Shown one piece after another: positions 29,093 through 32,000 of a stretch of DNA of 32,000 nucleotides (position 1 is the stretch's first letter; each line of letters begins with the position of its first letter). The notes under the pieces were generated by a model that made no database searches, was not told the DNA's origin, and saw nothing but the letters and a program-made list of their open reading frames with translations. Source of the DNA: Promethearchaeota archaeon (GTDB lineage Archaea; Asgardarchaeota; Thorarchaeia; Thorarchaeales; Thorarchaeaceae). Where the stretch lies: assembly GCA_027031765.1 (NCBI GenBank), contig JALVPN010000217.1:27719-59718 (forward strand), in the 5' to 3' direction. The position numbers and the translations under genes are program-made.

Positions 29093-29413
29093 CTAGTCAT
29101 CGGAGCTGGTGTCAGAGTCCCGATGGCCGATTATGAGGGGACGGGCATCATAGATAGCTCTGGCGACCTTCGAACGGGCACTGGCTAGAAGGCGCCACAC
29201 TGTCCCACGGCTGACCCCCATGGCGCGCCCGGCATCCTCCTGGTACAGGCCCTCAATGTCTACAAGACGGAGTACCTCAGCCTCTGCAAGATCCAGTACG
29301 AGGGGCTCGGGACTCCCCAGAGGATGCGGATCCATCCGTCTGGCCGCAGGCACCTTGCGGATTACAGGCTGGATTGGATACCGGCCACGACAACCACGTC
29401 TTCGTCTGTGCAT
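29093..29413 (-). CDS. DUF134 (UPF0251) predicted DNA-binding protein
   Basis: LDLAEAEVLRLVDIEGLYQEDAGRAMGVSRGTVWRLLASARSKVARA HTH pattern; Arg-rich N-terminus. Alternative GTG start at 29419. Confidence 0.9.
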   Translation of the reverse strand: MHRRRRGCRGRYPIQPVIRKVPAARRMDPHPLGSPEPLVLDLAEAEVLRLVDIEGLYQEDAGRAMGVSRGTVWRLLASARSKVARAIYDARPLIIGHRDSDTSSDD

Positions 29414-29503
29414 GTCCACTCAACTCGTTACCATCGTACCGTCCCACCGCTAGCCTTATATCTGTTCGTATGCACAGAAATATTGTGAGAGTATGCACAG
29501 AAA
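29405..29503. promoter_or_regulatory. Three imperfect copies of palindrome TCTGTGCATATGCACAGA around a TATA box (29456-29461); candidate operator array
   Basis: Copies at 29405-29422, 29461-29478 and 29484-29501, each 14/18 by hand count. Exact 13-bp direct repeat GTATGCACAGAAA at 29468-29480 and 29491-29503. Confidence 0.65.
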
Positions 29504-29515
29504 AGGTGATGTGAT

Positions 29516-29830
29516 GTGAGCTACCCATATGGATTTGGACATGGCAGGGCCGCGGGACGGGGCCGCGGCGGGAACTGGGGAATGTGGCCCGGCAATGGGC
29601 CATTCCGGCACCTGCCCCCGTGGGAACGACCAGGCTGGCTGTACGGCCCCGGCTCATGCTGGACACTTGGCTACTGGGGACGGGCCACAACGCCACCGCC
29701 AGTGGCACCTGGCGTCACTGACGTCCAAGTGCTACAGCGCCAGAAGGAGATTATCGAGGCGCAGCTTGAGTCGCTACGGACGGCCCTGGCCGATATCGAG
29801 AAGAAACTCAGAGAGCTCAGTGAAGAGTAG
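29516..29830 (+). CDS. DUF5320-like protein (Gly/Arg-rich N-terminus, coiled-coil C-terminus)
   Basis: GFGHGRAAGRGRGG, PPWERPGW, then LQRQKEIIEAQLESLRTALADIEKKL. AGGTGAT SD before the GTG start. Confidence 0.75.
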   Translation: MSYPYGFGHGRAAGRGRGGNWGMWPGNGPFRHLPPWERPGWLYGPGSCWTLGYWGRATTPPPVAPGVTDVQVLQRQKEIIEAQLESLRTALADIEKKLRELSEE

Positions 29831-29877
29831 AGAAGAGCGGGTGGATGGCCTGCTGGACAGACAGGAGCAACGCCGGT

Positions 29878-30741
29878 TCAGTGGGCCATCCCAATGACCC
29901 GGTCCCACATCTCAACTATTCTCTCTGTCATGGAGTGAGAGGGGGCATATTCCGGGAGCGGGAGCGCGGCGACCATAGAGTCTGTTGTGACCGTGTCGAA
30001 GGGGAGCCGGCCCAGCACCTCCACACTACGGCCTTGGCACATGTCCTCAATCTTCCGGGTGTTGTCAACATTGAGGTCGTACTTGTTGATCACGACCGTT
30101 GCGGGAACCCTGAAGCGCTCGAGGAGAGAGAGGATACGGTCGAGGTCGTGAAGACCGCTCATCGTTGGCTCCGTGACCACCACAGCCAGCTGGAGACCAG
30201 TAACGGTGGCGATGACGGGGCAACCAATCCCTGGCGACCCGTCGATAAGAATGGTGTCAGAACCAGTGGCATTTGCGATTCGTTCGCCCAGCTTGCGCAC
30301 CTCAGTCACAAGACGGCCCGAGTTGCCCTCGCCAGGCAACAGGCGCGCATGGGCCATGGGACCATAGCGGGTGGCAGACTCGAAGATGTATCCAGAGAGC
30401 CGGGGAGAGAGGTCTATTGCGTCCACCGGGCAGACATGTGCACAGACACCGCACCCCTCGCAGGACAGGGCATCAATCTCAGGCACATCCACTGCACCGA
30501 ACCTGCAATGGGTCTCACACAGTCCGCAGCGAGTACACTTGTCCACATCGATTGACGCGACCTTGGAGCCACTGAACTCAGACTCACTCTTGACGACAGG
30601 ATGGAGCAGGATGTGGAGGTCGGGGGCATCAACGTCACAGTCAACGAGGACGACATCGTCCGCAGCTGCTGCGAAGGAAGCGGTGAGTGTCGTCTTGCCC
30701 GTTCCACCCTTTCCACTGACTATGCCTATCTGGACTGCCAT
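29878..30741 (-). CDS. MinD-superfamily P-loop ATPase with inserted 2x[4Fe-4S] ferredoxin domain (COG1149)
   Basis: SGKGGTGKT, DCDVDAPD, CTRCGLC/CEGCGVC..CP, DGSPGIGCP, VTEPT. Confidence 0.92.
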   Translation of the reverse strand: MAVQIGIVSGKGGTGKTTLTASFAAAADDVVLVDCDVDAPDLHILLHPVVKSESEFSGSKVASIDVDKCTRCGLCETHCRFGAVDVPEIDALSCEGCGVCAHVCPVDAIDLSPRLSGYIFESATRYGPMAHARLLPGEGNSGRLVTEVRKLGERIANATGSDTILIDGSPGIGCPVIATVTGLQLAVVVTEPTMSGLHDLDRILSLLERFRVPATVVINKYDLNVDNTRKIEDMCQGRSVEVLGRLPFDTVTTDSMVAALPLPEYAPSHSMTERIVEMWDRVIGMAH

Positions 30742-30743
30742 GT

Positions 30744-31589
30744 CTAGACCATCTCACGGATTTGCTCGAACATCTCACGGAACCGCCGGCGCCACTCAGC
30801 ATCCCCCCTCACAAAGGGGATTCCAGCAGAGTACAGCTCTGCAATCCGACGTTCGAAGGGGATTTCCATAAGGACAGGGATGTCATTCTCCCTACAGAAC
30901 TGGTGTAGCCTGTCATCACCAATACCAGCCCGGTTCACTATTACGCCATATGGGATGCCCAGCGTACTGATTACCTCAACGGTCATCGAGAGGTCATGCA
31001 CACCAAAAGGTGTTGGTTCCGAAACGAGGACGACAAAGTCGGAGCCCCTGATACTTTCGATTACCGGACATGCGGTGCCAGGCGGTGCATCCACCACGAC
31101 ATCACCACTACCGGCCTCTGCCTTGACAGCCCTGATTACAGATGTCGCCACAGGCTCACCAATCTTCAGTTCACCATACACGAGTCGGATGCCGTCAATG
31201 TTAGCGGTGTGCACCCACCCCACCCTGCGGGGCCTCTCGCTTATTGCGTGGGTCGGACAGACCATCGCGCAACCACCACAGCTGTGGCACAGCTCCTCAT
31301 ATACAATGGTCTTTGTCTTGCCTACAAAGATTGCATTGAACTGACAGAAGTCGGCACAGGCCCCACAGTGGCTGCACGAGTCCTGGTCAACGACGGGGGT
31401 GGGGACTGTTACGGGTGTGGACTCGAATGTCGGGGGATGGAGCAGAGTATGTGCATTTGGCTCCTCAACATCGCAGTCAAGCAGGGTCACATCGCCAAGT
31501 GCAACTGCCAGGTTGACTGCAACTGTAGTCTTACCAGTACCACCTTTCCCACTTGCGACTGTGACCAGCAACGAAGCACACCCAGCCAT
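30744..31589 (-). CDS. MinD-superfamily P-loop ATPase with inserted 2x[4Fe-4S] ferredoxin domain (COG1149), paralog
   Basis: SGKGGTGKT, DCDVEEPN, CSHCGAC/CHSCGGC..CP, DAPPGTACP, VSEPTPFG. Confidence 0.92.
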   Translation of the reverse strand: MAGCASLLVTVASGKGGTGKTTVAVNLAVALGDVTLLDCDVEEPNAHTLLHPPTFESTPVTVPTPVVDQDSCSHCGACADFCQFNAIFVGKTKTIVYEELCHSCGGCAMVCPTHAISERPRRVGWVHTANIDGIRLVYGELKIGEPVATSVIRAVKAEAGSGDVVVDAPPGTACPVIESIRGSDFVVLVSEPTPFGVHDLSMTVEVISTLGIPYGVIVNRAGIGDDRLHQFCRENDIPVLMEIPFERRIAELYSAGIPFVRGDAEWRRRFREMFEQIREMV

Positions 31590-31955
31590 TCAGTGCCTAG
31601 CATCAACACAGCCTTCTGTAAGCTCCACGAGCTCGCCCCGGACGAACGCGTCCAGGATCTCGTCAGTGCGTACTGTGTTCGCCTTCAGAACCGCAATGCG
31701 CTGATCCTGGAAGCTCATCAGGCCACGCGGGCCCATGCCCTGCACAATTACGACATCGGGCCTGTGAGCGAGGACATTGTCGTGCGCATGACCACGACCA
31801 CCAGAGTGCTCACCGGTATTTGGGAACACCTCTCGCCGTGACACAGTGCCATCGTCGTCGAGTTCTACTAGGAGGAAGTATGGGGCACGGCCGAAGTGCC
31901 CCGAGATGACATCCCCATCAGCTGACTGGACTGGGAGCAGCAGTCTTGGACACAA
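31590..31955 (-). CDS. NifB/NifX-family (COG1433, IssA/ORP-like) protein
   Basis: ISGHFGRAPYFL, VVIVQGMGP, C-terminal Cys/His. Start set at TTG 31955 after the GGAGGTGG SD. Confidence 0.88.
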   Translation of the reverse strand: MCPRLLLPVQSADGDVISGHFGRAPYFLLVELDDDGTVSRREVFPNTGEHSGGRGHAHDNVLAHRPDVVIVQGMGPRGLMSFQDQRIAVLKANTVRTDEILDAFVRGELVELTEGCVDARH

Positions 31956-32000
31956 GGGGTTACCACCTCCTCCGCCCACGACCCCCACGACCCATGCCCC

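Follow-up and report, generated by a model that had tools for sequence, protein, structure and literature searches.

Analysis of the window (the whole stretch of 32,000 nucleotides, which forms the final 32 kb of contig C217 in a 2.95 Mb assembly of 59% G+C) identified two copies of a palindromic element at 29461–29478 and 29484–29501 that, judged by their conservation in related genomes, are real regulatory sites on the promoter of a gene encoding a DUF5320 protein. We infer that the two copies form a tandem operator of the adjacent DUF134 protein, a putative dimeric repressor of DUF5320 and probably also of its own gene, and we assign this combined reading of binder, repression and autoregulation a probability of about 0.7.

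The candidate regulator gene (29093–29413, minus strand) encodes a DUF134 protein of 106 aa that starts with MHRRRR and was recognized by matches to PF02001 and Sigma70_r4, and the gene under the operator (29516–29830, plus strand) has a GTG start and encodes a DUF5320 protein of 104 aa, recognized by PF17253 together with its orthologues. The 102-bp region between the two genes contains one TATA-like box, TTATAT at 29456–29461, and by direct reading the extended box TTATATCT (29456–29463) is the sole AT-rich box of this region and probably serves both directions. Site 1 (TCTGTTCGTATGCACAGA, plus strand, core 29463–29476) lies between the TATA box and the expected DUF5320 transcription start, and it overlaps the position predicted for a BRE of the divergent DUF134 promoter. 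Site 2 (plus strand), with an exact right half ATGCACAGA and a degenerate left half that matches 4/7, spans the same expected start. The preliminary description had placed two copies directly after TTATAT and 23 bp apart, and this arrangement was confirmed, as the pair extends from the last base of TTATAT to 14 nt before the DUF5320 start codon with 23 bp from one site to the next. A Shine-Dalgarno-like GGTGAT (29505–29510, plus strand; direct reading) follows 5 nt ahead of the GTG start.

The 9-mer ATGCACAGA occurred exactly three times in the window, at 29405–29413 (minus strand), 29470–29478 (plus strand) and 29493–29501 (plus strand), all within 97 bp, with no further copy elsewhere in the 32 kb. 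The 2.95 Mb genome holds 19 copies, which is approximately the chance level, and their sole cluster is the DUF134/DUF5320 region, where three copies within 100 bp correspond to p ~1e-5 by our own Poisson estimate. The preliminary description had reported three 14/18 matches to an 18-mer palindrome in less than 100 bp; the three copies were indeed present, with 14/18 matches by direct reading at 29484–29501 and 29405–29422, and the match at 29461–29478 was better than described (16/18).

A 22-nt matrix was built from 26 sites found in relatives only, with our own genome kept out of the training set, and was scanned over ~5.9 million genome positions. The two promoter copies ranked first (site 1, 26.7 bits) and second (site 2, 22.9 bits), and the third-best position reached 18.1 bits. 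A purely fortuitous repetition of the three copies could appeal to the lack of genome-wide enrichment of the 9-mer, whose 19 copies are about the number expected, but 3 of these 19 fall in 97 bp, the independent matrix places two of them at the top of the genome and sites recur in nearly all related loci of the same layout (44/45; see below), so that chance is refuted for the two promoter copies and is a negligible explanation for the cluster. The genome-wide motif scan proposed in the preliminary description returned the promoter pair as its two best positions, and the next matrix matches in this genome were all unconvincing as members of a wider regulon. Three of them were considered as additional sites and rejected: C165:36672 is a TATA-like AT-rich stretch with five core mismatches, C71:2109 falls within an ORF and C40:130925 is GC-flanked. 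Searching our genome for the 14-mer with at most two mismatches gave 6 matches vs 9 for the reversed control, which corresponds to the chance level, and the extra 14-mer matches in five relatives were scattered singletons with no second cluster. A strong-looking site in a genome that lacks DUF134 (G030) lies inside a thiolase gene and was dismissed as a counter-example.

The third copy (29405–29422), which covers the DUF134 start codon and had been put forward as an operator, did not withstand this analysis. It is a half-site only with a matrix score of just 3.1 bits, and the first nine bases of DUF134 vary synonymously in 47 Thorarchaeota orthologues (ATGCATAGA in 14, ATGCACAGA in 9, ATGCACAGG in 6, and others in the remainder), which explains the copy as Met-His-Arg coding sequence. 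Chance is the best reading for this copy, and it was accordingly judged a coding coincidence and rejected as a third operator.

Among sequenced samples, our DNA was matched only by a hydrothermal-vent metagenome, which may be the source sample. In a scan of one genome per species, the closest DUF134 loci were found in records labelled Thorarchaeota. DUF134 orthologues of 54–69% identity were present in most genomes of the same family, where DUF5320 is usually the divergent neighbour. The promoter layout of these relatives is that of our locus: a TTATAT/TTAAAT box leads directly into site 1, the second site follows ~24 bp on, and GGTGA precedes the DUF5320 start. An anchored line-up of 45 loci demonstrated a TTATAT or TTAAAT box before site 1 in most Thorarchaeota and Bathyarchaeia loci, and the anchored line-up also showed that GGTGA or GAGGTGA occupies the place equivalent to our Shine-Dalgarno-like sequence in relatives. 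The position of site 1 is kept in relatives and the spacing of the paired sites varies only from 23 to 25 bp, with the second site usually the stronger of the two and forming a near-perfect palindrome of core TGTGCATATGCACA and consensus TTGTGCATATGCACAAAA.

The DUF134-alignment scan of one genome per species yielded 407 loci that were confirmed through the peptide pattern M[GN][VIL]SRGT[IV]W, and the best 80 of these were analysed. Among the best 80, divergent DUF134/DUF5320 loci possessed at least one site of at least 18 bits within 300 bp of DUF134 in 44 of 45 cases and two such sites in 33 of 45, and in the sole exception the pair adjoins DUF5320, 500 bp away. Loci without an adjacent DUF5320 gene, again among the best 80, had a site in 6 of 34 cases and none in 28 of 34, and the background in the same loci was 5 matches of at least 18 bits in 384 kb. 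Conservation of the motif beside DUF134 orthologues, which the preliminary description had named as a test of its proposal, was therefore found in the divergent DUF134/DUF5320 arrangement, and far less often where DUF5320 is not adjacent.

Sites were also found in 23 of the 26 loci L139–L164, with the core TGTGCATAAGCACA, and none of these loci was in the matrix training set. Their records are mostly labelled Bathyarchaeia, Thermoproteota, Terraquivivens or Archaeoglobales, with two Asgard records among them. Because these loci from outside the training set carry sites, the comparison indicates that the operator element is conserved over three archaeal phyla, represented by Thorarchaeota, Bathyarchaeia and Archaeoglobales loci. 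Four loci (L150, L156, L158 and L164; two labelled Archaeoglobales and two labelled only 'uncultured archaeon') showed a different arrangement, with a weaker site TTGTGCAAAAGC upstream of and overlapping the TATA box and a strong site 15 bp after the box; operator geometry thus differs between phyla with the core sequence kept.

In one genome (G008) the site pair sits with DUF5320 and DUF134 is on another contig (L049), and in another (G023) the pair adjoins DUF5320 at 1.1 kb from DUF134 (L059). Two small genomes of the same phylum have the pair ahead of a string of DUF5320-like, nifX-like and DUF134 genes (L042, L043, L082, L084), and one genome of the same taxonomic order (L028) has a site directly ahead of a NifX-like gene. 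A search of 41 genomes found no DUF5320 in the absence of this DUF134 clade. In a Thorarchaeota subset of seven loci (L085, L088, L090, L094, L097, L115 and L138) DUF5320 is gone and DUF134 stands directly after nifX-minD-minD on the same strand; three of these seven (L085, L088 and L090) have one operator-like site ~90 bp upstream of DUF134. Three further genomes of the same family, 92–93% complete (G005, G007 and G022), have a DUF134 orthologue next to an Obg-like GTPase gene, but searches of the whole genomes found neither DUF5320 nor a paired strong site; the explanation is either an unassembled locus or a different set of DUF134 targets in these three.

DUF134 is most likely the protein that binds the promoter pair. 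It is the best candidate because no other DNA-binding protein is always encoded close by, because its recognition helix is invariant (alignment A1) across exactly the loci that share the site, because a single site stays upstream of DUF134 where DUF5320 has been lost (L085, L088, L090) and because DUF5320 never occurs without this DUF134 clade in the 41 genomes. As all 407 loci were found through the recognition-helix pattern and five residues of this helix are invariant in alignment A1, an invariant helix accompanies an invariant site. It counts against DUF134 that the motif is tied to the DUF5320 promoter no less closely than to DUF134, that the regulator is present in G005, G007 and G022, where neither DUF5320 nor a site pair was found, and that the left half of site 2 is degenerate in our genome. 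An alternative interpretation is that the pair is a genuine DUF5320 operator bound by another factor encoded elsewhere, such as a global regulator of the CRP/FNR-like or another type with specificity for TGTG-N6-CACA. Such a factor would account for the motif staying with DUF5320 when DUF134 is on another contig (L049) and for the 28 of 34 DUF134 loci without adjacent DUF5320 that have no site, and the core does resemble CRP-type sites; the genome has a single HTH_Crp_2 match barely above the Pfam cut-off and three below it. A global regulator should, however, have many sites, and the pair is unique in the genome, the next matches being coding or TATA-like; moreover, conservation of the site goes along with that of the DUF134 recognition helix over three phyla, single sites persist upstream of DUF134 after DUF5320 loss and no DUF5320 was found without DUF134 in those 41 genomes. 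We consequently regard binding by another factor as unlikely and continue with DUF134 as the candidate binder.

The properties of the DUF134 protein are in agreement with this role. The HTH-like segment mentioned in the preliminary description was verified by a Sigma70_r4 match (Pfam, 29.2 bits) and by a structural model with an HTH core. The family match to Pfam PF02001 scored 73.2 bits against a cut-off of 27 and covered residues 6–96, and the NCBIfam model PRK04217 matched with 88.9 bits, which is below its equivalog cut-off of 115. The structural model has a mean pLDDT of 98 over residues 41–80 (block means), is confident over 38–95 and predicts a strand-three-helix-strand core with helices at 42–53, 58–65 and 69–89. 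The recognition helix is GVSRGTVWRLL (residues 66–76), in which S68, R69, G70, W73 and R74 are invariant in alignment A1. A profile search of the PDB matched residues 45–82 to the DNA-binding domain of DeoR (7bhy, E 9.8e-5). Foldseek against the PDB returned nothing at E 0.001 or better and gave local HTH matches only, to sigma region 4, DeoR and EnfR, with an rmsd of ~0.6 Å over 40–50 columns in the best rows.

A DUF134 homodimer was modelled with a score of 0.86, compared with 0.00 for the best of three controls; among proteins of known structure, 20 of 30 same-chain pairs attained this mark, as did 1 of 23 single chains. The dimer runs showed 100% contact agreement and a partner pLDDT of 82, and the predicted interface comprises residues 20–33, 45–53 and 77–95, with the recognition helix (66–76) outside the interface contacts. 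This modelling supports, but does not show, that DUF134 is a symmetric homodimer suited to a dyad site.

In the mechanism that we propose, a symmetric homodimer of DUF134, encoded 50 bp away on the other strand, would occupy every 14-bp dyad (TGTG-N6-CACA; consensus TGTGCATATGCACA). The long third helix would enter the major groove with its N-terminal half, and further DNA contacts may come from the Arg-rich N-terminal arm. Since the pair stretches from the end of the TATA box to a little beyond the expected transcription start, occupied sites would be expected to block the assembly of TBP, TFB and RNA polymerase and hence to repress DUF5320. Archaeal repressors that prevent formation of the pre-initiation complex classically bind in this region. 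The known archaeal repressors MDR1, LrpA, Phr, NrpR and TrmB have dyad sites that lie on or after the TATA box and extend over the start, frequently with autoregulation, and the DUF134/DUF5320 pair resembles them in having dyad sites after the TATA box and over the expected start. Their folds are DtxR, Lrp/AsnC, winged helix and TrmB, and none of the five is known to be a DUF134 protein. As this DUF134 clade has no conserved cysteine, the inducing signal may reach DUF134 via a partner or a small ligand.

The location of the repeats also allows them to be viewed as core-promoter or initiator elements, or as an RNA structure in the DUF5320 leader, in place of protein sites, since site 2 is probably within the first transcribed bases and palindromes can form hairpins. 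This explanation appears very unlikely: there was no Rfam match, the RNA fold was no better than that of shuffled sequences (z = +0.22), site 1 starts at the TATA box and hence lies upstream of the expected start, and the motif is unique to the DUF5320 promoter and not general to promoters. The conserved sequence, dyad symmetry and fixed spacing are instead typical of sites for dimeric proteins.

Repression by DUF134 probably extends to its own gene, through the shared TATA box and site 1. Autorepression is considered probable here because a single TATA-like box is present and site 1 covers the place of the DUF134 BRE; this only box must also serve DUF134, or else the DUF134 promoter would lie within the operator. 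The preliminary description had likewise proposed that DUF134 autorepresses, which is plausible by this route and not by way of the start-codon copy. In relatives (L004, L010 and L012 among them), the DUF134 strand was observed to carry a conserved AT-rich element of approximate sequence CGAAnAGATAnTA, ~40 bp ahead of DUF134 and 25–35 bp from site 1. The equivalent in our genome, CGAACAGATATAAGG (29455–29471, minus strand), falls on the DUF5320 TATA box together with the left half of site 1, and it looks as if two promoters had merged in a shortened intergenic region (102 bp vs an estimated 120–150 bp in most relatives). The separate element in relatives indicates that autoregulation may be particular to our genome.

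The same element raises the question of whether DUF134 binds the pair but mainly activates, or is dual, for example by activating its own divergent promoter from upstream. In most relatives site 1 is ~30–35 bp upstream of the separate AT-rich element ahead of DUF134, and archaeal regulators can activate from such an upstream position. On the DUF5320 side, nevertheless, the sites of every lineage follow the TATA box and precede the start codon, the classical place for repression, and site 1 of our own genome overlaps the only TATA/BRE region, so that a mainly activating or dual role is rated as quite improbable and repression is retained as the preferred activity of DUF134.

Downstream of DUF5320, a convergent operon (29878–31988, minus strand; Pfam Nitro_FeMo-Co, CbiA/ParA and Fer4) encodes a nifX-like protein and two MinD/2x[4Fe-4S] ATPases. 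The nifX-like gene (31590–31988 or longer, minus strand; Nitro_FeMo-Co) is followed by the first ATPase gene (30744–31589, minus strand) and then by the ATPase gene adjoining DUF5320 (29878–30741, minus strand), both with CbiA/ParA and Fer4 matches. The operon converges on DUF5320 with the same gene order in relatives, and the nifX-like and MinD/ferredoxin genes have a weak NCBIfam similarity to the MrpORP model. Control of this Fe-S ATPase/NifX locus by DUF134 had been proposed previously, but the operon is convergent with its own promoter, and no site of at least 13 bits was found upstream of nifX in eight relatives for which 10 kb of context was available; within the Thorarchaeota lineage direct control is consequently not supported by the sequences. 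The NifX-like frame of our genome (31590–32000) has no ATG and is open to the contig end, which is also the window end, and its true start and promoter are therefore outside the assembly; no other contig of this genome overlaps the contig end beyond nifX. The 47-bp gap between the stop codons of DUF5320 and the adjoining MinD-type ATPase (29831–29877) was observed to have no T-rich stretch, in contrast to the short T-rich runs at this place in relatives. Transcription of DUF5320 might continue in antisense into the ATPase operon.

The DUF5320 protein was matched to Pfam PF17253 with an E of 2.6e-4, a match under the family cut-off, and its orthologues share 51–66% identity and the same divergent position. 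Its N-terminus is rich in Gly, Arg and Trp and contains a GPGSCW motif, and its C-terminus is predicted to be helical and heptad-like. One tentative and somewhat doubtful interpretation is that DUF134 and DUF5320 make up a conserved two-gene sensing loop of anaerobes, in which DUF134 would be the DNA-binding half and DUF5320, with its Cys/Trp-rich head and helical heptad-like tail, a co-regulator or signal-relay partner tied to the adjacent ORP-like Fe-S/metal-cluster machinery. As a variant, DUF134 would control the ATPase operon indirectly via the antisense read-through.

Comparison with characterized regulators identified three partial parallels. In EnfR (TON_1525), a small archaeal regulator of the Tfx family, a sigma-70 region-4-type HTH precedes a long dimerising helix (PMC10570040; PDB 8hno/8hnp); the N-terminal residues of EnfR aid DNA binding, and EnfR represses from a pseudo-palindromic core-promoter site of 36 bp to control a CO dehydrogenase cluster (PMC10570040). 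The DUF134 model aligns locally to 8hno, and contacts by the C-terminal half of the long helix are likewise part of the predicted DUF134 dimer. DUF134 differs in giving no sequence match to 8hno at E up to 1, in having 40 extra N-terminal residues that include the Arg-rich arm, and in lacking the Tfx C-terminal alpha+beta domain (no Pfam match), since it ends 17 residues past the long helix; the EnfR site is also unrelated in sequence.

The second parallel is Bacillus subtilis DeoR of the SorC family, in which a region-4-like HTH reads a short palindrome, TTGAACAAAATTCAA, that overlaps the promoter (PMC11229326; PDB 7bhy, 8r7y). The deoR gene adjoins its target with the operator between them at -60 to -21, and the bacterial protein has 318 aa and a sugar-phosphate effector domain, binding as a tetramer to two half-operators (PMC11229326). 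Although 7bhy is the best sequence match of DUF134 among solved structures, only the HTH matches, and the 106-aa DUF134 is without an effector domain. DUF134 is proposed to work in the manner of EnfR and the DeoR DNA-binding domain but belongs to neither Tfx nor SorC/DeoR, because the C-terminal domains that define these families are absent.

The third is OrpR of Desulfovibrio vulgaris Hildenborough, a local regulator whose regulon is confined to its own anaerobe-specific Fe-S cluster with sites in a divergent intergenic region, and which belongs to the sigma-54 enhancer-binding activators and senses through a [4Fe-4S] PAS domain (PMC8359166, PMC3897727). The genes next to our locus resemble the ORP cluster in their NifX-like and MinD/ferredoxin products, a likeness based on the weak match to the MrpORP model. 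In contrast to OrpR, DUF134 is a minimal archaeal HTH protein without PAS, AAA+ or sigma-54 enhancer-binding features, and unlike the orp system, the Thorarchaeota operator is on DUF5320 and not on the NifX/ATPase operon.

DUF134 (UPF0251, COG1342) is an old uncharacterised family found widely among anaerobic archaea and bacteria. A full-text literature search, judged by title and abstract, found no published DUF134 target and no DUF134/DUF5320 characterisation, in agreement with the preliminary description, which knew of no characterised DUF134 site. The mechanism proposed is thus a classical one, and the regulator family and its site are those for which this search found no published description. 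The locus provides the DUF134 family with a testable target that consists of a 106-aa protein and a 45-bp fragment, and the consensus TGTGCATATGCACA is offered for one DUF134 clade, defined by the recognition helix SRGT[IV]WR. As the Thorarchaeota gene under the operator is DUF5320 and not the NifX/Fe-S ATPase genes, the question shifts to a second uncharacterised family. Should the tentative sensing loop be true, a single experiment would give both uncharacterised families a function, because operator and recognition helix are nearly unchanged from Asgard to Bathyarchaeia and Archaeoglobales, and it would supply the first defined transcription-factor/operator pair for Asgard archaea, for which we know of no defined regulator–operator pair.

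A second DUF134 paralogue with the helix VSQPTFNRIL was also noted in our genome (G000:C110:14775–15053; L001:1444–1836, minus strand), with relatives at L173–L188, L031 and L032 that have a C-terminal zinc ribbon. A TGAAT-N4-ATTCA dyad (at most two mismatches) was present in a fixed position, 18–26 bp before the start, in 7 of 19 paralogue loci, perfect in three, and was absent from the copy in our own genome. The loose pattern also occurred in 13 of 27 AT-rich orthologue upstream regions, and its specificity is unproven. At L187 the perfect TGAATATATATTCA lies 19 bp before a DUF134 paralogue with the helix SQPTLHR (SQPTFNR-type clade), and because this sequence precedes a paralogue with a different recognition helix, the observation fits clade-specific DUF134 sites.
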